Source: Thalassavirus gary
Taxonomy: Duplodnaviria; Heunggongvirae; Uroviricota; Caudoviricetes; Demerecviridae
Virus record (IMG/VR): IMGVR_UViG_2974784677_000001
DNA: 46,312 nucleotides
Direction: 5' to 3' (one strand)
The notes under the pieces were generated by a model. That model was not told the origin of the DNA and ran no database searches. It was given only the letters and a program-made list of their open reading frames with translations. The translations under genes and the position numbers were made by a program. Below, one piece after another: positions 1 to 10,260 of this stretch. Within the stretch, counting starts at the first letter, position 1; each line of letters begins with the position of its first letter.

Positions 1-12
1 CCATATATCGCA

Positions 13-233
13 TTCGCACCTAGATTTCGCACCCACCCCAATCCTGGCCATGCCTTGCTGCACGCAGCTGGACTCGGCCAAATTTTTGGAGCAATCGGAT
101 TCGCACCTGCAGGCGCCTGACCAAATAGCAGAAAATATAAAACTCAAAATGCATCGAATCGGCACCTAATTTATAATAGAATTTGCACCTACTGCCATGT
201 AATCATCGAATTTGCACTTGTCGGATTTGCACC
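13..233 (+). repeat. Seven dispersed copies of a TTYGCACC-like motif
   Basis: ttcgcacc 13-20, 26-33, 100-107; tcggcacc 159-166; tttgcacc 182-189, 226-233; tttgcact 211-218. Confidence 0.8.
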
Positions 234-259
234 CAGGCGCAGGAGGGACGTCCGGAGCT

Positions 260-347
260 CTATACGTCTATCCTTCCAGACTTCTATCCATCCAGACTTC
301 TAGCCATCTATCCTTCTATCCATCTAGCCGTCTAGACTTCTATCCTT
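260..347 (+). repeat. Degenerate 8-bp tandem array, 11 units
   Basis: ctatacgt ctatcctt ccagactt ctatccat ccagactt ctagccat ctatcctt ctatccat ctagccgt ctagactt ctatcctt, in exact 8-bp phase. Confidence 0.9.
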
Positions 348-359
348 CCGTATGCCCTA

Positions 360-375
360 CTGTAAAGGTTTACAG
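360..375. promoter_or_regulatory. LexA (SOS) box
   Basis: (ta)CTGT-AAAGGTTT-ACAG(ta) matches CTGT-N8-ACAG with canonical TA flanks. Confidence 0.7.
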
Positions 376-422
376 TACACCATTCTGTATAAAATTTTAC
401 CTTATGCCGTCCCGTATAAAAT

Positions 423-439
423 ATGGCACGATTCTTGCT
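423..439 (+). promoter_or_regulatory. sigma54 (RpoN) -24/-12 site
   Basis: aTGGCACG-attc-TTGCT; GG at 425-426 and GC at 437-438, separated by the canonical 10 nt. Confidence 0.6.
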
Positions 440-449
440 TATTAAAAAG

Positions 450-520
450 TTATCCACAACTGTATATTTATACATCGCTCTAAAACGCTCTATACAGAGT
501 TATCCACAACCTTATCCACC
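450..520 (+). promoter_or_regulatory. DnaA box cluster (left)
   Basis: TTATCCACA 450-458 and 500-508; TTATCCACC 512-520. Confidence 0.75.
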
Positions 521-545
521 GCAAAACCACTGTATATTTATACAG
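460..545. promoter_or_regulatory. Two LexA boxes
   Basis: CTGTATATTTATACAG 530-545 (perfect); CTGTATATTTATACAT 460-475 (one mismatch). Confidence 0.7.
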
Positions 546-740
546 GGCTTATGTCGCAGCATATTATTTCGAATACCGTTTCTAGCGCCTCCTAGCCTCA
601 CCACGACGTTTTAAGCCTTTTAGGGTACTATGGCCTACCCTATCCTACACGCCCATAGCGCCATGTAACACTAGCACGACTTTTACGTGCTGCCGGAGCG
701 GCGCGGTTTTACAGAATGGTGTACGGTAAACGGGTAAACA

Positions 741-768
741 AAACGGCGTCACTTTTCGGTGACGCTGT
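741..768 (-). terminator. Rho-independent terminator of the minus-strand pre-early operon
   Basis: Minus strand acagcgtcac-cgaaaa-gtgacgccgt followed by tttgttt, just after the 775 stop. Confidence 0.7.
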
Positions 769-774
769 AACAGT

Positions 775-1011
775 TTAATTTATTTGGTATTTGGCACGCT
801 CTAGGATCGAAATTGCGTCATCAATTAGATTGCTTGCCGCTTCAGTATCGTGCTCAAACGGGGCGGTATTACTGACAGTTAAGTAAATAAACTGTATGGC
901 CGCCGCACTATCAGGATCTTGCTCTAGAGTAGGATCACTCGCTCTAGCTTCATGTAGCAGCCATTTAACATGCTCGAAAAAATCCGAATCGACCAAATAT
1001 TGTTTATCCAT
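775..1011 (-). CDS. Pre-early hypothetical protein, acidic (78 aa)
   Basis: ATG ORF, last in a co-oriented cluster and followed by a terminator; 15 D/E vs 5 K/R. Confidence 0.75.
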   Translation of the reverse strand: MDKQYLVDSDFFEHVKWLLHEARASDPTLEQDPDSAAAIQFIYLTVSNTAPFEHDTEAASNLIDDAISILERAKYQIN

Positions 1012-1065
1012 TTTACACCACCCAAATCATTGCAATTAAAAGTACGATGTCCAGTAAATCAATTT

Positions 1066-1290
1066 TCATCGTGGTTCAAAGTCCCGTACTATTTCTAGAA
1101 ATTCACGGATTGTAATTCCATCACACCGAATTTCCTCATCGGAGTGTTGAGTATGACGTACTGTAAACTTGTCATACTCTACTTGCTCGATTTCATCTAC
1201 TAGCACACCTTTATAGTATAAACCACGTTGTTTGTGTGCCTCATACACTTGTTGCAAAAATGATACTAACATTTCACTAGGTCTTAACAT
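1066..1290 (-). CDS. Pre-early hypothetical protein (74 aa)
   Basis: RBS GGAGG upstream of ATG; co-oriented cluster. Confidence 0.75.
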   Translation of the reverse strand: MLRPSEMLVSFLQQVYEAHKQRGLYYKGVLVDEIEQVEYDKFTVRHTQHSDEEIRCDGITIREFLEIVRDFEPR

Positions 1291-1292
1291 GG

Positions 1293-1469
1293 TTAAACCT
1301 CCACCGGATAAAGTTTGTTTACTACAGCGTACGCCGTACCGTTTTCATCTTGCCACACTTGACCAAATTCATTAGTTTCTACATGCTTCAAAATCATAGG
1401 CACAATATGACCATTATGCATAATATTGCACATCCAAGTTTGTCCTAGTGTCATAACGTGAACGCTCAT
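1293..1469 (-). CDS. Pre-early hypothetical protein (58 aa, MSVHVMTLGQTWMCN...YPVEV); not in ORF track
   Basis: Translated by hand; fills the gap, ATGA overlap with the upstream ORF, and its 3' end carries the RBS of the next gene. Confidence 0.65.
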   Translation of the reverse strand: MSVHVMTLGQTWMCNIMHNGHIVPMILKHVETNEFGQVWQDENGTAYAVVNKLYPVEV

Positions 1470-1573
1470 TTTAAAATCACCAAAATTTTATTATAGTCCA
1501 TACGTACCGTAAAAAACGGTTTGCCGTTTCTAGCAGCCCATAGCAAAGCAGTTGCATAGTTATCAAATTCCAT
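1466..1573 (-). CDS. Pre-early hypothetical peptide (35 aa, MEFDNYATALLWAARNGKPFFTVRMDYNKILVILK); not in ORF track
   Basis: Starts 1 nt after the upstream stop (TAG T ATG) and ends in an ATGA overlap with the next ORF. Confidence 0.55.
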   Translation of the reverse strand: MEFDNYATALLWAARNGKPFFTVRMDYNKILVILK

Positions 1574-1574
1574 A

Positions 1575-1805
1575 CTAATAATGTGTCGGTAGGTTAAGTC
1601 TTAACAATCCATTGCGAACACCAAAACATAGGTGCTTAGATTCTACAGGTTCAAGCTCGCAAGGGTAGCACATAAAAGACTCACCGCAAAAAACATACGG
1701 GGATACTACAGAAATATAACTCCCGTCAATGGCTACAATAACACCACATTTGCCGTTAGTATCTTTGCAGCGACCTTTTACTTTTACAATTTGGTTAACT
1801 TTCAT
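1575..1805 (-). CDS. Pre-early hypothetical protein (76 aa)
   Basis: ATG ORF in the co-oriented cluster; N-terminus is SH3/KOW-like in pattern (VKVKG...GVIVAIDG). Confidence 0.7.
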   Translation of the reverse strand: MKVNQIVKVKGRCKDTNGKCGVIVAIDGSYISVVSPYVFCGESFMCYPCELEPVESKHLCFGVRNGLLRLNLPTHY

Positions 1806-1876
1806 TTAAGGGTACTCCGTAGGGTAAAGGGTACGTATGCCGTACCCTAAAGCCGTTAACACAATGATTACACTAA

Positions 1877-2179
1877 TCATGCCAATTCTCGAATCATATC
1901 ACGTAATAAATCGGCGTCCGCATCATTGCAGTATATAAACCCGTAACCGTTACCACCGTCATGTGGGGCAACTTCTTTTAATACTTGAGATACAGTATGG
2001 TGTTTTGCTAGTATGCCTGTTTTTATACAGTGTAGCGTTCGCTTCCCTAGCAAGTCACCAGATTTTTGTAGTGTGATTTCTCCATCACTCCATAACTGGT
2101 ACACCATACCGTTTCGTGCTGCTAGGTCGTCGTTGTTAGCAGATACAAATTTTTCTGTTAATTCTGTAATAGTAATCAT
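1877..2179 (-). CDS. Pre-early hypothetical protein (100 aa)
   Basis: RBS GAGG; co-oriented cluster. Confidence 0.75.
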   Translation of the reverse strand: MITITELTEKFVSANNDDLAARNGMVYQLWSDGEITLQKSGDLLGKRTLHCIKTGILAKHHTVSQVLKEVAPHDGGNGYGFIYCNDADADLLRDMIRELA

Positions 2180-2194
2180 CGCTAATACCTCGTA

Positions 2195-2515
2195 TTATAT
2201 CCCTAGCCAGCCGTTTTCGAATCGTGCGCCCTCAAAAATAGCCCACCATGTTAACAAGTCAGCCCTAGCGTATTGGTACAGCATACCGCCATTAGTCGCG
2301 CCATTAGCAAAAGCTATAGCATACGCTAAAACTTTAGCTTTTAACACGTCCTCGACATCATTAAAAAGGCTGATATTTCGAGTAATTTCGAAATGGTATT
2401 CTTTGTTGCTCAAAAAGCATTGAGCCATTTCTAGACGTTTACTCATTGGAGTATCTGCGTTCAGTTGGTACGCTGTACTGATTTTTGGTTGTTCTAAAAA
2501 TTGTTGGTATGACAT
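2195..2515 (-). CDS. Pre-early hypothetical protein (106 aa)
   Basis: RBS GAGG, with a promoter directly upstream. Confidence 0.75.
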   Translation of the reverse strand: MSYQQFLEQPKISTAYQLNADTPMSKRLEMAQCFLSNKEYHFEITRNISLFNDVEDVLKAKVLAYAIAFANGATNGGMLYQYARADLLTWWAIFEGARFENGWLGI

Positions 2516-2558
2516 TTTGTTGCCCTCGCTTAAAGCGGTAATTATTGTCTAGGTCTTA

Positions 2559-2587
2559 ATAATACCAAAACCTAGACATGGTGTAAA
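2559..2587 (-). promoter_or_regulatory. sigma70-type pre-early promoter
   Basis: TTTACA-17 bp-TATTAT on the minus strand; -10 flanked by inverted repeat tgtctagg/cctagaca. Confidence 0.65.
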
Positions 2588-2605
2588 GTGATTTAGGTCA
2601 CACTT

Positions 2606-2914
2606 TTAAACGGGGTTATAATCAATTTGATCGATACCAATTTCACGCCATACCATAGACTTATCATCATAGCCCCAACCGTCTAGAAGCTCAAGAATTG
2701 CGCTACGTTCACGGCGGTCATATAAACCCAAGATATGCATCTCATCGTTATAGATAGTTACACCATAGGCAGGATGAACAACCATAATGATAGATTCATC
2801 ATTATCAAGATACCATAGAGTTTCACTAGGATCTTCAACTATATTATTTAGCGGTAGGGCGTCCAGTATAGTATCTAGACTGAGTAACAAAGTTTTTTCT
2901 TTTAGGTTAAACAT
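2606..2914 (-). CDS. Pre-early hypothetical protein, acidic (102 aa)
   Basis: Start moved to ATG 2914 behind GGAGG; 20 D/E vs 7 K/R. Confidence 0.75.
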   Translation of the reverse strand: MFNLKEKTLLLSLDTILDALPLNNIVEDPSETLWYLDNDESIIMVVHPAYGVTIYNDEMHILGLYDRRERSAILELLDGWGYDDKSMVWREIGIDQIDYNPV

Positions 2915-3203
2915 TTTTAACAACCTCCGCAACAACTACTTTCACGGGTACTACTTGAGTGCTACTATCAATATAGTGGTCGTGGCGTACGTCACCATAT
3001 TCCGGTAACACCATATTAGTTGTTTTGGGTACTAGTGGCACGAAAAAGATGTCGTTGTCATCTTCACTATATACACACACCGCAACTAGAACATTTTTAA
3101 TATCTAGTTCATCGCCATACCTAACAAAAGCATCCCCAAATTTTAACGTATCCGCTTGGATGCACTCATGCTCACTTTTATGATTCTCAACAGTTACAAA
3201 CAT
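2907..3203 (-). CDS. Pre-early hypothetical protein (98 aa)
   Basis: RBS GGAG; overlaps the downstream start. Confidence 0.75.
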   Translation of the reverse strand: MFVTVENHKSEHECIQADTLKFGDAFVRYGDELDIKNVLVAVCVYSEDDNDIFFVPLVPKTTNMVLPEYGDVRHDHYIDSSTQVVPVKVVVAEVVKNV

Positions 3204-3265
3204 TTAACATCTCCAGTAAGGGTAAAAACCAACCAATAGGGCTAAACAAAACGCTACACTGCAAA

Positions 3266-3388
3266 CTAGTTCAAGCATGTTATACCTACCTTATTAAGTA
3301 GTTTATCAAGTGTCGCAGCACTAGCAACAAATTCGCCAGTTTCAATACTGACACACCACCAAATAACATCAAAAAACATACGGTACAT
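3266..3388 (-). CDS. Pre-early hypothetical peptide (40 aa, MYRMFFDVIWWCVSIETGEFVASAATLDKLLNKVGITCLN); not in ORF track
   Basis: GGAGGG RBS and a promoter immediately upstream; translated by hand. Confidence 0.6.
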   Translation of the reverse strand: MYRMFFDVIWWCVSIETGEFVASAATLDKLLNKVGITCLN

Positions 3389-3417
3389 TGTTTCGCCCTC
3401 CTATTGGGTAGGACTTA

Positions 3418-3446
3418 ATCATACTAAATCTAGGCCAAAAGTCTAA
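3418..3446 (-). promoter_or_regulatory. sigma70-type pre-early promoter
   Basis: TTAGAC-17 bp-TATGAT on the minus strand; shares extended sequence with the 2559-2587 promoter. Confidence 0.6.
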
Positions 3447-3551
3447 TAACATTTAGCTATATCCACCAGCAAAACGATGCCCAGGCGTTATAAGCGCTGT
3501 AAGCCGTTATAAGAGGTTCTAGCAAAAAGCCTTGTTTTAGTATGCCTTACT

Positions 3552-3718
3552 TGTGTATAACCACTCACAACGGATTCTAGAGCCTAGGAACGCCATTCTA
3601 TATCGGATAAGCTGTGATTTAGTGTAGATAAGATCCGTTTTCCTGTTAGTATGTTGTGGATAACCAGTAGATATACAGTATTATTAGAACTTGCTAATGT
3701 GCATAAGTCTGTGTATAA
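3552..3718 (-). promoter_or_regulatory. DnaA box cluster (right, opposite orientation)
   Basis: TGTGTATAA 3552-3560, TGTGGATAA 3655-3663, TGTGTATAA 3710-3718; all match TTATNCACA on the minus strand. Confidence 0.75.
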
Positions 3719-3925
3719 AAAGTTGGCACGAAAATTTCCTAATATATAAATCAAGAAATATTTTGCTATATAATATAACTAGAAATTCTTTGACAAGCTC
3801 AAAAATCTATGAATCGAGCTATGCACAAAAGTGACTAAATATGCAGTTTTTTAACTAAAAGTGCATAAACGATTTAAATGAACTCGACTACAGGGTAGGG
3901 CTAAAATTGCTTAGAATCGCATACA

Positions 3926-3963
3926 GAGCGTTTTAGAGCTATGTATAAATATACAGTGGTTTT
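3926..3963. repeat. Inverted copy of the 459-490 and 523-544 elements, containing a LexA-like box (3941-3956)
   Basis: 3926-3957 is the reverse complement of 459-490 at 31/32; 3942-3963 is the reverse complement of 523-544 at 22/22. Confidence 0.9.
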
Positions 3964-3967
3964 CAAG

Positions 3968-3984
3968 TTGGCATGGTTATTGCT
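3968..3984 (+). promoter_or_regulatory. sigma54 (RpoN) -24/-12 site
   Basis: TTGGCATG-gtta-TTGCT with GG-N10-GC spacing; a near-match TTGGCACG-aaaa-TTTC lies at 3723-3738. Confidence 0.55.
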
Positions 3985-4169
3985 ACGTGCGCGTTTCTAT
4001 TTATATTTATAGCCCTAGGTTATATTAGTAATTACTATATTAGAAACGCCTCGATTAATAAAATTTATCGTCACGATAAAAACGTTTTGTTAGACTATAA
4101 TCCTAGATTCGCTATTATATACCCATACCGCAACAACACGGCGGGACAGAAAAGCTGAAAAGCTTCTCG

Positions 4170-4218
4170 AAAAAAGTTGAAAAAAGTTGTTGACACACTA
4201 AGCGGCTTTTGAGATACT
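4170..4218 (+). promoter_or_regulatory. Strong pre-early promoter of the A2-A1-dmp operon
   Basis: A-tract UP element, TTGACA 4190-4195, 17 bp, TG-n-GATACT 4213-4218. Confidence 0.75.
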
Positions 4219-4224
4219 AACAAC

Positions 4225-4249
4225 GTCCCCAAGGGGGCACGCTCTTTAA
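4225..4249 (+). promoter_or_regulatory. Hairpin (boxB-like) followed by boxA antitermination element
   Basis: gtccc-caag-ggggc hairpin 4225-4238, then CGCTCTTTAA 4240-4249 (cf. rrn TGCTCTTTAA, lambda CGCTCTTA). Confidence 0.6.
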
Positions 4250-4424
4250 GGCAGTAAGACGGAATGCAGTGATGCATCGAATGCCTAGACAATTTGGAAA
4301 ATGCGATTTGACCCATTGCTTACTTGATTGGATTGTTTGAGTATTAACCGTTAGCCGATTCATAGCGAGTCGGTTAACTGAGAAATACTCTCATTTAAAA
4401 CTAACCTATTAAGAGGAAAATATC

Positions 4425-4862
4425 ATGGCTAAGAAATGGACAGAAGAAATGGCGGAAAAAGCAGCAACTCTTTACACTGCTAAACTTGAAGCTGAAGGTA
4501 AAGAAGCGGCAGCACATACCGATTTTCTTGATACCATTGCGGTAGAAGTCGAGGCTGTATCAGGTAAAGCGGTTCGCTCAAAACTAACTGTTATGGGTGT
4601 TTACCAAAAACCGGACGCCGTTGCAAGTGTAGCTAAAACGAACACTGTACGTAAAGAACACTATGTACGTGCTCTAGCTCATACGCTTGGTTTAGATGCT
4701 GATGATTTAGACAGCTTGAAAAACGCTAAAATGTCAGCCCTAGCCGATTTAGCTCAAGCGATTGGTATCACTGACATTCAAGCAGCAAGCGCAAAAAATT
4801 ACGAACCGGATTTAGAAAAGGTTTGTGAAGCTTTCGAAAATGCCCGTGGTCTAGACCTATAA
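4425..4862 (+). CDS. A2: A2 protein (pre-early DNA-binding protein, second-step transfer)
   Basis: KWTEE..., VRSKLT...YQK and RKEHYVRALA motifs resemble T5 A2; synteny with A1 and dmp; GAGG RBS. Confidence 0.85.
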   Translation: MAKKWTEEMAEKAATLYTAKLEAEGKEAAAHTDFLDTIAVEVEAVSGKAVRSKLTVMGVYQKPDAVASVAKTNTVRKEHYVRALAHTLGLDADDLDSLKNAKMSALADLAQAIGITDIQAASAKNYEPDLEKVCEAFENARGLDL

Positions 4863-5389: not shown

Positions 5390-7054
5390 ATGAAACAAGT
5401 TAACGAAGTAATCACAGCAAACGCAACGGCAATCATTAAAGCTGCAAAAGGTCTTAATTTTTGGGGCAAACGCCTAGACTCAAAACGCCGTGAAATTGCT
5501 ATTGCAATTCGTGATTCTCTTAAAATCACTATCCATTCTAGCGAGCTTATTGATTGGCTAGACGAAAACAAGCCAGTCAAACCAGTAAAAGCAAAAAGTC
5601 ACTCGCAGCAAGCAAAAGCTGACATTGAACCTACTTTTGCAGGTTCTATCAATGGTCGAGATTTTGACAACCTAGACGACGGTTTGTATATCTTGACGGC
5701 AGGACAGAACAACACAAAACCGCATCCAGTCTTAAATACTCTATTAGCAATTGCTAATGAGCGTGATGCAGAGTTCGGAGTTATGCCGATTAAATATACA
5801 ACCGTGCTACAGGGACGTGAACGCAAAGAGCCTAAATATCACGCAGATATTAAAAAGCATATTCTAGAGCCTGTAGATACTTGGTTAGGTGGTGAAGGTA
5901 ACGTGCTACTAGCTAACAGTGCTCAGATTCTCCCAACTGCAAAACAGCCAATTAACGCAGCCGAGCGACTAAATACAGGTGAATCATTAACTATTGTTGC
6001 TAGTCCTCGTCGCCAGACTAAAACCCTACCACGTCAAAAGAATGGGGCTTTCCGTTGGGTTTATACAACAGGTGTTTGTACTCAAATGCATTACACTGAC
6101 AGCCGAGCAGGGGCAGAAGCAGAAGCAGAACACTGTTTTGGTGGTGTGTTAATTGAAGTTCGAGACGGGCTAATCAATCACCGCCGTTTAGTAGCTGACG
6201 AAAACGGTGTTATTATTGATAACGGTTCGGTGTACTTCCCTGACGGCACTATCAAAGCTTACAATGATGTTTTTGAGCAAAAGCCTGTTATCGTGCTAGG
6301 TGATTTGCATTGTGAGAAAATGTGCGAAGACTCATTTAACAGAGCATTACGCCAGATTCACAACGAAAACCCGTCATTGGTAGTTGTTCATGATGCGCTT
6401 GATTTTATGAGCCGTAACCACCACAACCGCGAGGACTGGACATTCTTATACCAAATGCAAGACCGTGCAGTAATCGACGATTTAACCGATGTAATCAATC
6501 ACCTAAACCAGATTGCAGAATACGCGCCCGTTTTCATTGTTGAATCAAACCATGATTTAGCTCTAGATTCTTGGGTACGTGATAATAAATTCGATGTACG
6601 CAAAGACCCTAAAAACGCCCGTACATATCACGCTCTAATGCTTGCTTACATTGAAGCGATGGACAACGGCGAATTAAACGACCTTGCAAAAATGGATTTA
6701 GCATTCAGAGCACTAGCTGACAAGCTACCAGAGTTAAGCGATGATATCGAGTTCGGTAAAATCGACTCACAACGTCTAGTATTTGGTTATGATGTTTCTA
6801 TGCATGGTCATGTTGGTACAGGTGGAGCGCGTGGCTCAGCAGTATCATTCAAAAAGATGCGCATTAAAACTGTAACAGGTCACACACATTCACCTTTTGA
6901 AGATAACAATAATATTGTTGTTGGTGTAACTGGCTCTATGGAGATGGGTTATAACAAAGGTGGTACAACTTGGGACAGAGCAAACGCAGTTATTTACCCT
7001 AACTCAACTCACCAACTACTACCAACCTACCTAATCGGTGAAGCTCAATACTAA
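5390..7054 (+). CDS. A1: A1 protein (metallophosphoesterase-fold DNase; host DNA degradation and second-step transfer)
   Basis: 554 aa; GDLH, VHD, ESNHD, MHGH, GHTHSP motifs; N-terminal LNFWGKRL as in T5 A1; synteny. Confidence 0.92.
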   Translation: MKQVNEVITANATAIIKAAKGLNFWGKRLDSKRREIAIAIRDSLKITIHSSELIDWLDENKPVKPVKAKSHSQQAKADIEPTFAGSINGRDFDNLDDGLYILTAGQNNTKPHPVLNTLLAIANERDAEFGVMPIKYTTVLQGRERKEPKYHADIKKHILEPVDTWLGGEGNVLLANSAQILPTAKQPINAAERLNTGESLTIVASPRRQTKTLPRQKNGAFRWVYTTGVCTQMHYTDSRAGAEAEAEHCFGGVLIEVRDGLINHRRLVADENGVIIDNGSVYFPDGTIKAYNDVFEQKPVIVLGDLHCEKMCEDSFNRALRQIHNENPSLVVVHDALDFMSRNHHNREDWTFLYQMQDRAVIDDLTDVINHLNQIAEYAPVFIVESNHDLALDSWVRDNKFDVRKDPKNARTYHALMLAYIEAMDNGELNDLAKMDLAFRALADKLPELSDDIEFGKIDSQRLVFGYDVSMHGHVGTGGARGSAVSFKKMRIKTVTGHTHSPFEDNNNIVVGVTGSMEMGYNKGGTTWDRANAVIYPNSTHQLLPTYLIGEAQY

Positions 7055-7341: not shown

Positions 7342-7426
7342 CATTCACTAGCACATAAACCACGTGGCGGGCGCAAATGTGATGCCCGTCACACTTTTAC
7401 TTAACCGCATAAGCGAGTATTTACCA

Positions 7427-8065
7427 ATGAAAAAAGCATACATATTTGACCTAGACGGCACAACAATTGATTCTTTTCACCGTGTTGAGCCATGCCTAGA
7501 TTCACAGGGTAACTTGAATCTAGATAAATATATCAAAGAGGCTTGCACGCCTGAAAAGGTAGCCAATGACAAACTGTTGCCACTTGCCGGATACATGCAA
7601 CAACTAATCAAACAGGGTGAACTTGTTATCATCCTAACAGCTCGTTACATGCTTAATCATGATTATGTTTACCTACGCCGTAATCAATTGAGAACGCCTA
7701 TCATTTGCAGCCGTGACCAATTGAGCCGTGTATTTGGTGAAGGTAATGCAGCCCGTATCAGTGCAATGTCAGATGCACCATACAAACAACAATGGTTTGA
7801 ACATCTATTTGCTAGTATGCCACAAGTTACAGAATGGTGTTTCTTTGACGACCACGACGGTATATTAGAAATGGCTAATTCATTAAAAGGTGTAACAGCT
7901 ACCGACGCTAAATTGATGAATCAACTGTTAGAAATGCAATGGGCTGACATTTACCGCCAAGGCGAACAAGACACCGCCGAGTTGATACAAGACCTAATTG
8001 TTGAATGTTCACATCAAGACGTGATTATCAAACCGGAGTGGATTGATGAGCTTTTAGCTGAATAA
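7427..8065 (+). CDS. dmp: Deoxynucleoside-5'-monophosphatase (HAD family)
   Basis: FDLDGTTIDSFHRV and FFDDH HAD motifs; last gene of the terminal repeat as in T5; start moved to ATG 7427. Confidence 0.9.
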   Translation: MKKAYIFDLDGTTIDSFHRVEPCLDSQGNLNLDKYIKEACTPEKVANDKLLPLAGYMQQLIKQGELVIILTARYMLNHDYVYLRRNQLRTPIICSRDQLSRVFGEGNAARISAMSDAPYKQQWFEHLFASMPQVTEWCFFDDHDGILEMANSLKGVTATDAKLMNQLLEMQWADIYRQGEQDTAELIQDLIVECSHQDVIIKPEWIDELLAE

Positions 8066-8315: not shown

Positions 8316-10260
8316 ATGCCGTACCCAATATATAGAAACCTAACCGTACCTCAGGTGTCTTGTACGTTACGTCCCTCTCGCCAAGTTTATTATAATATGT
8401 TGTCTTGCCAGAATACTCAGCACACTGTAGGGCAGCATTAGTAAGTTTATACCACCCTACCAATTCTAGCTCATTGCGCACCCAATTTACCCGTATCTTA
8501 TATTGTATTCTTACAGCCTGCATCTTATTACCAGTACTAGAGAAATACCACCAAGACCTATCCGAGCTTGTTTTTGATACATCTCGCATTGTGCTGAATC
8601 CTATATCAGATACAACCGCTTCCTTATCAGGATGATCCTTACTAAATATCATGTATTGTAAGTTTGACCAGCCGGAATATCCATCAATACCTACATTCAT
8701 TTTAGACGTTTTACCAGCAATCGTGCTACTCGCCTCCCCCTTCAAGTATGGTGAGCTAACATGCACTGATAAATAGCTCTTATTAGTACTGCCTGGTGGT
8801 AGCTTTATTCTTTGTTTCACCACTGTTTTATAGTAATTCCCACATTGGTCAGGGTTCAGAACACGTCTCCAATCTGATGGCCCGAAGTCTATTACCTCTT
8901 TCTTGAATGAAGTACCTTGTTTTAATTGTGCGAAGGTATTGGTTTCAGCTGGAAATACCGCCGTAATAGCCGAATCACCGCCAAGTACAAAAGGTGTATA
9001 CTTTCTAGCCTTTGATGCTATTAAATATTCACCTTTACTTCCTTTATATTTAATCTCATCCGCCGAGAAGTCTAGTGATACGCCAGTCCCAAGAAGCGCT
9101 GACGGGGAGTGCACTAGTAGTATAGTATCAATGTTATACCAGCCTGTACCCTCATTAACACTCCAGTTACCATTGCTACTCTTAAAAAATCTACAGTAAG
9201 GGAATGGGTAGTCTGCTAGTTGTGCCAACGTCAAACCCTTTACTAGCCTGTCAAAAAACGGATACTTGACTTTATATTTATGACTAGAAATTGTACTATC
9301 TAGTAAATCTTCATTTGGAGCAGGATCCGTTATGAACATTCCGTTTTTCATAGCTAAATCCCCTACTACCATATCTTCACGAGATATGCGTATACCATCA
9401 CTTACATCAGGCTTCACATGTTCTAGTTTGTTGCTAGAATTATATTTTACATTAAATATATAAATAATTAATTTGAAGTTACTATCTGATGGGTTAGTAG
9501 ATGAGTAAGTTAGAGTAGTTGGAGCTGATGCTGTAGGTCTAATAATACGCATCCTAGATGATGTAGTACCATTAGCGAACAGTGCTCTATTTATTTTGTT
9601 TTCCTTAGTGAAACTAGCTGATGTAGCTCTACTAGCTGATGCAGACACATTTGGAGACTGAATTACTCTTTTATAGTTCTTAGTTTTCGGTGCTAAACCA
9701 GATATGCTCCAGTTATTTCTATAGTAACTTTTACTAGTAGGGTAGTCTGTTATAAATGAATCACTTTGGATACGCACTGCTTGATCCACCGTTTCGTCAG
9801 CATTAGCCATATCATGCATATCTATAGGTGCCCAACCACTGGAAATACCACCGTAAGGGTGTCCTCCTCCCATAGAACCTTGAAAATTACCTATAAATAT
9901 ATCTGCCGAAGTAGGAGACCAGTCACTAGAATATACACCTATAGGTCTATGCTCTACGTAGTTAGGGTGGTATGATACGTTTGAGCCACACATTAGGTAT
10001 CCTTGGTTCATGTAGTTCCATACCTCTTGTGGTATAACCGGTTCATAGTAGTGGTAATATCTAGTACCCGATTGTCTAGCTTCTACGTGCTTAAATTGAG
10101 TTACCTCTATAACCTTTGATATTGCTAAGTATGGTATATCTGAGTGAAATAGCGTTGAGGCTATAGGTGCCCCATGTAATTGAGAAATAGACTCACTGCC
10201 ACTAGTTACATGTAATAGTGGTCTATTATCTGAGGGCTTTCTGCCCATAAAAAGTGCCAT
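8314..10260 (-). CDS. pb5: Receptor-binding protein, pb5/Oad-like (648 aa)
   Basis: N-terminus MALFMGR...LFHSDIPYL resembles T5 pb5 (...IFHSDMPF); divergent from terS as in T5; AGGAGG RBS. Confidence 0.8.
   Translation of the reverse strand: MALFMGRKPSDNRPLLHVTSGSESISQLHGAPIASTLFHSDIPYLAISKVIEVTQFKHVEARQSGTRYYHYYEPVIPQEVWNYMNQGYLMCGSNVSYHPNYVEHRPIGVYSSDWSPTSADIFIGNFQGSMGGGHPYGGISSGWAPIDMHDMANADETVDQAVRIQSDSFITDYPTSKSYYRNNWSISGLAPKTKNYKRVIQSPNVSASASRATSASFTKENKINRALFANGTTSSRMRIIRPTASAPTTLTYSSTNPSDSNFKLIIYIFNVKYNSSNKLEHVKPDVSDGIRISREDMVVGDLAMKNGMFITDPAPNEDLLDSTISSHKYKVKYPFFDRLVKGLTLAQLADYPFPYCRFFKSSNGNWSVNEGTGWYNIDTILLVHSPSALLGTGVSLDFSADEIKYKGSKGEYLIASKARKYTPFVLGGDSAITAVFPAETNTFAQLKQGTSFKKEVIDFGPSDWRRVLNPDQCGNYYKTVVKQRIKLPPGSTNKSYLSVHVSSPYLKGEASSTIAGKTSKMNVGIDGYSGWSNLQYMIFSKDHPDKEAVVSDIGFSTMRDVSKTSSDRSWWYFSSTGNKMQAVRIQYKIRVNWVRNELELVGWYKLTNAALQCAEYSGKTTYYNKLGERDVTYKTPEVRLGFYILGTA

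Follow-up and report, generated by a model that had tools for sequence, protein, structure and literature searches.

Our analysis points to the host repressor LexA as the likeliest ligand of three short palindromes in the noncoding DNA of Thalassavirus gary, a T5-like, virulent phage of the Demerecviridae with A2, A1, and dmp genes. Within the stretch that we analyzed (46,312 nucleotides, IMG/VR record IMGVR_UViG_2974784677_000001; referred to here as the window), these palindromes, boxes A, B, and C, are, judging from alignment, the Vibrio phage copies of palindrome D of phage T5 and are situated inside T5-type injection-stop modules. As near-consensus operators that stand beside DnaA boxes in modules of the first-step-transfer DNA, they would be bound by host LexA with a probability that we put at roughly 0.55. 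A preliminary description of the same DNA had reported four LexA boxes, all of them noncoding, in a strictly lytic phage. We found all four sequences at the positions given there, confirmed that they lie within 1-774 and 3389-4424, two stretches without conserved genes, and confirmed the virulent character of the phage. The four boxes are nevertheless not equivalents: boxes A, B, and C are excellent operator matches, of which A and C carry a mismatch, and the remaining one, box D, is not conserved.

Positions 360 to 375, no strand assigned: box D, CTGTAAAGGTTTACAG with TA flanks, in the palindrome TACTGTAAAGGTTTACAGTA at 358-377
Positions 460 to 475, no strand assigned: box A, CTGTATATTTATACAT, 14/16 to the LexA consensus, with a G16-to-T mismatch
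Positions 530 to 545, no strand assigned: box B, CTGTATATTTATACAG, 15/16 to the LexA consensus, homolog of T5 palindrome D in IRD' (T5 9332-9347)
Positions 3941 to 3956, no strand assigned: box C, ATGTATAAATATACAG, 14/16 to the LexA consensus, with a C1-to-A mismatch

Agreement of the boxes with the LexA operator

The LexA box given for Vibrio cholerae is CTGTATATATATACAG (PMC5963079), and CTGT-N8-ACAG was confirmed by electrophoretic mobility shift assay with LexA of Vibrio parahaemolyticus in a regulon analysis that also covers Vibrio harveyi (PMC3323433); the Vibrio motif is the same as that of Escherichia coli LexA. Boxes A, B, and C share with the chromosomal SOS operators of E. coli and Vibrio the 16-bp CTGT-N8-ACAG form with an AT-rich spacer, and their fit to the consensus equals or exceeds that of the host sites that we examined (PMC3323433, PMC5963079). 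Box B departs from CTGTATATATATACAG at one central position only, and boxes A and C have one arm mismatch each. We know of no fit of the three boxes to the consensus of NrdR, TyrR, PurR, the NifA upstream activating sequence TGT-N10-ACA, or CRP.

How far this agreement exceeds chance depends on the pattern that is counted. The preliminary description had proposed a genome-wide count of CTGT-N8-ACAG, with a similar box frequency in coding regions speaking against its claim. When the count was run on the window, the bare pattern stood at chance level, with 2 perfect sites against 0.96 expected and 19 one-mismatch sites against 19.7 expected. Taken alone, that yardstick would dismiss the finding, and we rejected enrichment of the bare pattern as evidence. 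The extended consensus gave a different answer: in the window, three sites match CTGTATATATATACAG at 14 or more of the 16 positions, against 0.033 expected from Markov simulations, and all three are boxes A, B, and C. The only 15/16 site is box B, and no such site arose in 300 simulations. The three boxes are copies of one element, CTGTATA-N3-ATACA(G/T), and are thus not independent of each other. Boxes A and B are direct repeats, 70 bp apart, and box C is included in a 39-nucleotide inverted repeat (92% identity) formed by 456-494 and 3922-3960.

Specificity was examined in three collections. For the chromosome of E. coli K-12 (4.6 Mb), we used the pattern CTGT-WW-N4-WW-ACAG, which is much looser than the phage boxes; 7 of its 12 matches lie directly upstream of recA, umuD, sbmC, dinD, tisB/istR, hokE, and ftsK, all of them LexA-regulated SOS genes. 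Across five whole T5-like records, every box of the CTGTAT...ATACAG type falls in noncoding DNA of the terminal repeat, and the remaining CTGT-N8-ACAG matches in those genomes have the GC-rich or mixed spacers that chance predicts. A scan of IMG/VR for ACTGTATANNNATACAG returned at least 120 stretches; the contigs among the matches listed are mostly about 20 to 60 kb long, a size suggestive of prophages, in which such boxes would be ordinary LexA operators. Among the matches listed, a DnaA consensus lies within 60 bp of the box in 2 of 83 boxes, and the sole TTATCCACA case is on a 120-kb T5-like contig. This frequency of 2/83 among the matches listed argues that the composite of a LexA box and a DnaA box is specific to T5-like phages.

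Box D is a different palindrome from boxes A to C, with a poorer match to the LexA consensus and a AAAGGTTT spacer, and it overlaps positions 368-392, which form an inverted repeat with 707-731. Its perfect CTGT/ACAG arms occur in the window phage and in Luma; most relatives have CTGCAAAC..TTTACAG at this place, and the element is missing from Ceto, pVp-1, VF16, and KIT04. With CTGC in most relatives and no counterpart in others, box D was rejected as a conserved site, and it is probably not a LexA site.

The boxes within T5-type modules of the candidate injection stop

The preliminary description presented the boxes without reference to a known element; they belong to the inverted repeats with DnaA boxes already described for the injection stop of T5 (Davison, bioRxiv 10.1101/866236). 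In T5, the inverted repeats IRC-spacer-IRD and IRD'-spacer-IRC' surround a variable block of open reading frames and hold about eight DnaA boxes, always paired 3 bp apart (Davison 2020, bioRxiv 10.1101/866236). The T5 genome (AY587007) carries taCTGTATAAATATACAGta at 9332-9347, named "palindrome D" in GenBank and lying within IRD', and caCTGTATAAATATACAGgg at 6137-6152, within IRD. The palindrome of the window differs from that of T5, CTGTATAAATATACAG, in no more than the two central bases, box B being the reverse complement of the T5 form. When eight lineages are aligned, enteric and Vibrio phages have no blocks in common other than the DnaA boxes and this palindrome. The DnaA boxes of the window follow the TTWTNCACA consensus, form pairs with 3-bp spacing, and have opposite orientations in the two modules, which are 3.4 kb apart.

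Positions 450 to 458, plus strand: DnaA box TTATCCACA, 1 bp upstream of box A
Positions 500 to 520, plus strand: DnaA-box pair TTATCCACA-ACC-TTATCCACC (500-508 and 512-520), with the 3-bp separation of T5
Positions 3552 to 3560, 3655 to 3663, 3698 to 3706, and 3710 to 3718, minus strand: four DnaA boxes, the last two 3 bp apart
Positions 3671 to 3678, minus strand: relic LexA half-site CTGTATAT, adjoining the DnaA box at 3655-3663; a complete box stands there in Vibrio phages 234P1 and D260

The modules occupy the same genome places as Repeat Regions 2 and 3 of T5, namely, between A2 and the cassette of small genes and between that cassette and the end of the terminal repeat, and they share with those regions the 3-bp pairs of DnaA boxes and the inverted arrangement. 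There are also differences. The Vibrio modules have an additional one-mismatch box, box A; the Vibrio module on the A2 side is a hybrid, not a clean inverted copy, and has the relic half-site beside its DnaA boxes; and promoters of the sigma54 type adjoin the Vibrio boxes. The distance from DnaA box to CTGT is 1 bp at box A, and there is none in T5, where TTATCCTA runs into CTGT. The half-site at 3671-3678 may be what remained when the Thalassavirus lineage lost about 12 bp by deletion.

In a megablast comparison, the window groups with Thalassavirus, a genus of T5-like Vibrio phages; over the aligned parts, it is 95 to 96% identical to Luma, Brizo, Achelous, and AG74. The long terminal repeat of VF16, as defined by PhageTerm, encloses the whole homologous region in the T5 order: dmp, A1, A2, noncoding block 1, small genes, noncoding block 2, and the end of the repeat. 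This gene order, together with the VF16 repeat, identifies this part of the window as first-step-transfer DNA, written in the reverse of the T5 convention. Positions 1-774 are thus the counterpart of T5 Repeat Region 3, the candidate injection stop signal, and positions 3389-4424 are the counterpart of T5 Repeat Regions 1 and 2. Both are noncoding and flank an accessory pre-early cassette, with A2, A1, and dmp beyond; the annotation of relatives places only sporadic tiny open reading frames in the two stretches, which hold all four boxes. Even in T5, the stop signal has been assigned by position only (bioRxiv 10.1101/866236; PMC13250531). An Rfam scan of positions 1-4500 gave no family match except for one chance-level microRNA match.

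Positions 775 to 3388, minus strand: cassette of small pre-early genes between the two noncoding modules, with a gene content that differs among relatives
Positions 4425 to 4862, plus strand: A2 gene for a pre-early DNA-binding protein (phrog_1725; 42% identity to T5 A2), the candidate alternative binder of the palindrome
Between A2 and A1: a conserved hypothetical gene, listed among the genes to the right of the boxes
Positions 5390 to 7054, plus strand: A1 gene for a DNA transfer protein (phrog_1745, E value of 5e-167; annotation in relatives)
Positions 7364 to 8065, plus strand: gene for a dmp-type deoxynucleoside-5'-monophosphatase at the leading end of the first-step-transfer DNA (annotation in relatives)

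Further repeats are found in the left module. Directly preceding box D, positions 259-357 hold at least eight phased 8-bp units resembling TCTATCCN, and ATCGNATTCGCACCT is repeated five times within 7-219; both sets are positional counterparts of DRD and the other direct repeats near the end of the T5 terminal repeat.

Conservation across T5-like phages

We compared the window with 19 relatives: 14 Vibrio phages (Thalassavirus, Cetovirus, Vipunavirus, and Pogseptimavirus), the distant Vibrio phages 234P1 and D260, T5 (Tequintavirus), a Klebsiella phage (Sugarlandvirus), and a Proteus phage (Novosibvirus). All 19 have at least one LexA-type box, and mostly two or three, in the homologous noncoding modules, with DnaA boxes alongside at the inner module. 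The boxes thus occur at orthologous positions, with operator-like degeneracy; conservation at orthologous positions is the comparative-genomics criterion for SOS regulons (PMC3323433). The boxes for our information profile were gathered with a permissive regular expression, and the profile is partly shaped by that search; the nine different box sequences have invariant arms, CTGTATA and ATACAG, and vary in the three central bases (TTT, AAT, TCC, AAC, GAT, and TAA). The rare changes within the arms are one-sided and uncompensated (TTACAG in the Proteus phage, AAACAG in VspSw_1, and ACAG to CCAG, read as CTGG on the other strand, in the Klebsiella phage). Fixed arms, a variable center, and uncompensated changes together argue for the site of a dimeric protein and not for a structural stem.

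The individual boxes differ in range. Box A is restricted to Thalassavirus, Cetovirus, and Vipunavirus (it is not found in T5, the Klebsiella and Proteus phages, 234P1, D260, or VspSw_1), and its G16-to-T mismatch is identical in 12 of the 12 relatives that have the box. The C1-to-A mismatch of box C is the same in most relatives with this box, and the arms are perfect CTGT...ACAG in pVp-1, VF16, VPT02, 234P1, and Proteus phage RP7. River4 and Hades have lost the left boxes: an unrelated sequence of the ACGCCGTAC type replaces boxes A and B, with the DnaA boxes, the flanks, and the one-mismatch box C kept.

River4 586 to 700 and Hades 529 to 640: replaced boxes of the left module

In Vibrio phage 234P1, a DnaA box is followed by a segment similar to this replacement, GGAACGCCGTTCCTGAACGCCAT, and the likeness points to an exchange of modules between T5-like vibriophages through recombination.

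Downstream of box C, we also noted a TACRYGCGC element common to Vibrio and Proteus phages (window 3956-4000, RP7 6489-6530, and pVp-1 3830-3870). It is present whether the promoter-like sequence that precedes it is of the sigma54 type, as in most Vibrio phages, or has a TTGACA/TTGACT hexamer, which in Proteus RP7, pVp-1, and VF16 lies 4 bp past the box.

Promoters near the boxes

According to the preliminary description, no box overlapped an identifiable promoter. That statement is correct for strong sigma70 promoters, but a weak sigma70-like match overlaps box B, and sites of the sigma54 type adjoin boxes A and C.

Positions 424 to 439, plus strand: sigma54-type -24/-12 consensus TGGCACGATTCTTGCT, with a predicted start near 450 that would place box A at about +10 to +25
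Positions 3969 to 3984, plus strand: sigma54-type consensus TGGCATGGTTATTGCT, oriented toward A2 and separated from box C by 12 bp
Positions 539 to 567, plus strand: weak sigma70-like TATACA-17-TATTAT, uncertain, with its -35 hexamer within the right arm of box B

Throughout the window, the strict pattern TGGCAY-N5-TTGCW occurs only at 424-439 and 3969-3984, each time beside a box, against about 0.02 occurrences expected by our own arithmetic. The site at 424-439 is conserved in all aligned Vibrio relatives, and the 12-bp gap between box C and its neighbor is kept in Pontus, Brizo, Thalassa, River4, KIT04, and 234P1. Sites of this type are present in all Vibrio T5-like phages scanned, some of which have up to about ten in their first-step-transfer DNA, and we found none in the T5, Klebsiella, and Proteus phages scanned. 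Since these enteric phages have boxes without sigma54 sites, the link to sigma54 is an addition of the Vibrio lineage and not the ancestral role of the palindrome. For these sigma54-type promoters, we identified neither an enhancer-binding activator nor an activator site. The sigma70-like match TATACA-17-TATTAT also follows the IRD box of T5; it is missing in the Klebsiella phage and in River4, and we did not adopt a conserved sigma70 promoter overlapping box B.

In this respect, the phage boxes differ from the host operators that they resemble. Damage-response genes of the chromosome have their SOS operators on or next to sigma70 promoters, whereas boxes A to C lie in gene-free repeat modules, beside DnaA boxes, in the first-injected DNA of a virulent phage. 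Temperate phages offer a second comparison, since the LexA operators of CTX-phi (rstA/rstR; PMC3323433) and of GIL01 (P1, with gp7; PMC4551915) likewise belong to phage genomes that use host LexA. Those operators control the choice between lysogeny and lysis at defined promoters; here, the phage is virulent and has no repressor partner, and the boxes show no clear promoter overlap.

A longer motif, CTAGrTTTwGTATkATTAAGwCCTA, is common to the cassette promoters at 2541-2587 and 3418-3445 (minus strand) and suggests that the pre-early small genes have an extended promoter signature specific to the phage.

A model for LexA at the modules and the alternatives to it

Considering the match of the boxes to the operator and their place in the genome, we propose the following scenario, in which both the in vivo binding of LexA to the boxes and its effects are inferred. 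The first-step DNA would enter the cell naked, and LexA, abundant before infection, could occupy the boxes within seconds, as the quality of the operator matches suggests. Together with DnaA on the abutting 9-mers, it would form a host-protein complex. One such complex would sit a few hundred base pairs (about 100 to 300) inside the presumed pause point, and a second would sit on the opposite side of the cassette; Vibrio phages would have the complex directly beside their two sigma54-type promoters. LexA would leave by RecA-stimulated self-cleavage, either in a host already induced for SOS or after the phage-driven breakdown of host DNA. The state of the module may then track host DNA damage through transcription from the adjoining promoters, the access of DnaA, or the stability of the pause complex. 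Such a dependence would agree with the other suggestion of the preliminary description, that injection or replication might be sensitive to DNA damage in the host.

Several points weigh against this reading. None of the boxes takes the classical position of a repressor over a strong sigma70 promoter: there is no box on the sigma70-like promoters that serve the cassette (minus strand, about 3418-3445 and 2559-2587) or on the strong promoter of A2 at 4190-4218. The mismatch in the outermost arm base of A and C should weaken the binding of LexA, and its conservation suggests that a further, overlapping constraint besides maximal LexA affinity shapes both boxes. The replacement of boxes A and B in River4 and Hades shows that phages can do without the boxes, at least in the module nearest the pause. 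Laboratory strains deficient in recA support the growth of T5, and cleavage of LexA therefore cannot be required for the second transfer step. The 42% identity between the A2 proteins of T5 and the window phage is compatible with a conserved phage protein acting on a conserved site. Finally, among LexA-like sequences of V. cholerae that match more loosely than our boxes do, some gave no shift with LexA (PMC5963079). The state of River4 and Hades without the left boxes and the growth of T5 on recA-deficient strains make the role of LexA look modulatory and not essential. A bolder version, which we think improbable, would make LexA and DnaA the host parts of the T5-type pause. In that case, the two proteins would hold the last-entering module, and cleavage of LexA, brought about by A1-dependent breakdown of host DNA or by prior damage, would speed the second step and open pre-early transcription from the Vibrio sigma54 promoters, so that delivery would be timed by the SOS state of the host.

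The palindrome could instead be the target of a conserved pre-early phage protein, either A2 or a nuclease of A1 with A2, in which case its likeness to a LexA operator would be coincidence or mimicry; we regard this as possible, if doubtful. Both proteins are conserved, the similarity of A2 to its T5 counterpart is enough to keep a binding specificity, and A2 is a DNA-binding protein needed for second-step transfer. The conserved single-arm mismatch of boxes A and C fits a constraint other than LexA, and a confident model shows A2 as all-helical, with helices resembling a helix-turn-helix. Also in favor of a phage-protein target, Davison counts PalD among the candidate cleavage sites and proposes A1 with A2 as a site-specific nuclease at palindromes (bioRxiv 10.1101/866236). 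Set against this is River4, whose A2 is 97% identical to that of the window even though it lacks boxes A and B: A2 has not covaried with the boxes, which weakens the case for a phage protein. The variation in the center, and the change of ACAG to CCAG in the Klebsiella phage, are in keeping with the degeneracy seen in LexA operators, and it would take a large coincidence for the palindrome to match the consensus of an unrelated host repressor at 15 to 16 of 16 positions. The A2 model (predicted local distance difference test score of 86) also shows no LexA-like winged helix. A Foldseek search of it against the PDB returned nothing at an E value of 0.001 or less, the top rows being weak hits to regulators with helix-turn-helix domains of the TetR and DtxR/MntR types, and a search of A2 against the Pfam copy that we used gave no match. 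By eye, the N terminus of A2 resembles a three-helix motif of the SANT/Myb kind (W-TEE..., VRSK..YQK) that coincides with three short helices of the model, and neither Pfam nor Foldseek against the PDB confirmed a family; homologs of A2 carry the precomputed Pfam label PF26822.

Were the palindromes to act as DNA structure, as hairpins or cruciforms or through pairing of the modules, they might stall transfer or guide the recombination that swaps cassettes. The stop region of T5-like phages is rich in repeats and palindromes that are thought to form secondary structures (PMC13250531; Davison, bioRxiv 10.1101/866236), the modules are long inverted repeats around a highly variable cassette, and the module swap in River4 and Hades, with its replacement resembling the 234P1 segment, would suit such a role. 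We nevertheless give it little credence: the arms are just 6 to 7 AT-rich base pairs, the one-sided changes described above break their symmetry without compensation, and structure by itself would not preserve the LexA consensus from host to host next to flanks that have completely diverged. Also unlikely, in our estimation, is a role limited to the Vibrio lineage, in which the boxes are operators of the adjoining sigma54 promoters and SOS gates some pre-early transcription, with an additional promoter in front of A2-A1-dmp among its sources. In this arrangement, box A would be a roadblock at about +10 to +25, and box C, centered near -47, would interfere with the activator. The confinement of the strict sigma54 consensus to two sites in 46 kb, each beside a box, and the constancy of the 12-bp gap across several genera speak for this arrangement, but it cannot be the ancestral role when the T5, Klebsiella, and Proteus phages have boxes without sigma54 sites, and neither an activator site nor a phage-encoded activator was identified. 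The preliminary description had suggested that the boxes titrate LexA and thereby induce SOS or arrest cell division, which we consider highly improbable. The sites are of the high-affinity type, and their number after replication could approach the size of the LexA pool; at infection, however, about 3 sites per repeat face an E. coli pool of roughly a thousand LexA molecules, and titration leaves the fixed position beside DnaA boxes unexplained. Moreover, host DNA is already broken down in the pre-early phase of infection by T5-like phages (PMC13250531; bioRxiv 10.64898/2026.04.02.716235), so that host SOS genes could no longer be expressed and their derepression would be of little use.

Significance for T5-like phages

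The T5 repeats, their DnaA boxes, and palindrome D have already been described. In the literature that we searched, including the Davison 2020 preprint (bioRxiv 10.1101/866236), we did not find the palindrome read as a LexA operator; it appears there only as a palindrome or a possible restriction site. A 2026 paper likewise presents the stop signal with repeats, palindromes, and DnaA boxes only and calls the mechanism poorly understood (PMC13250531). New from the window are the fixed-spacing pairing with sigma54-type sites, the loss of boxes in River4 and Hades with an unchanged A2, the relic half-site at 3671-3678, the controls with E. coli and IMG/VR, and the demotion of the box at 360.

The halt of T5-like DNA transfer once the first 8% of the genome has entered, and its resumption, have been an open problem for about sixty years. 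Our comparison indicates that the most conserved palindrome of the pause-site repeats, kept from T5 to the Vibrio phages, reads as a first-rate operator for another abundant host protein besides DnaA, namely, LexA. As E. coli and T5 mutants and purified proteins already exist, LexA is a cheaply testable host factor for the pause. If LexA does bind, this would be a use of LexA by a strictly virulent phage that has no lysogeny decision to make, and the fixed pairing of boxes with sigma54-type promoters suggests host-state-dependent control of pre-early genes in the Vibrio lineage that is not shared by the enteric phages.

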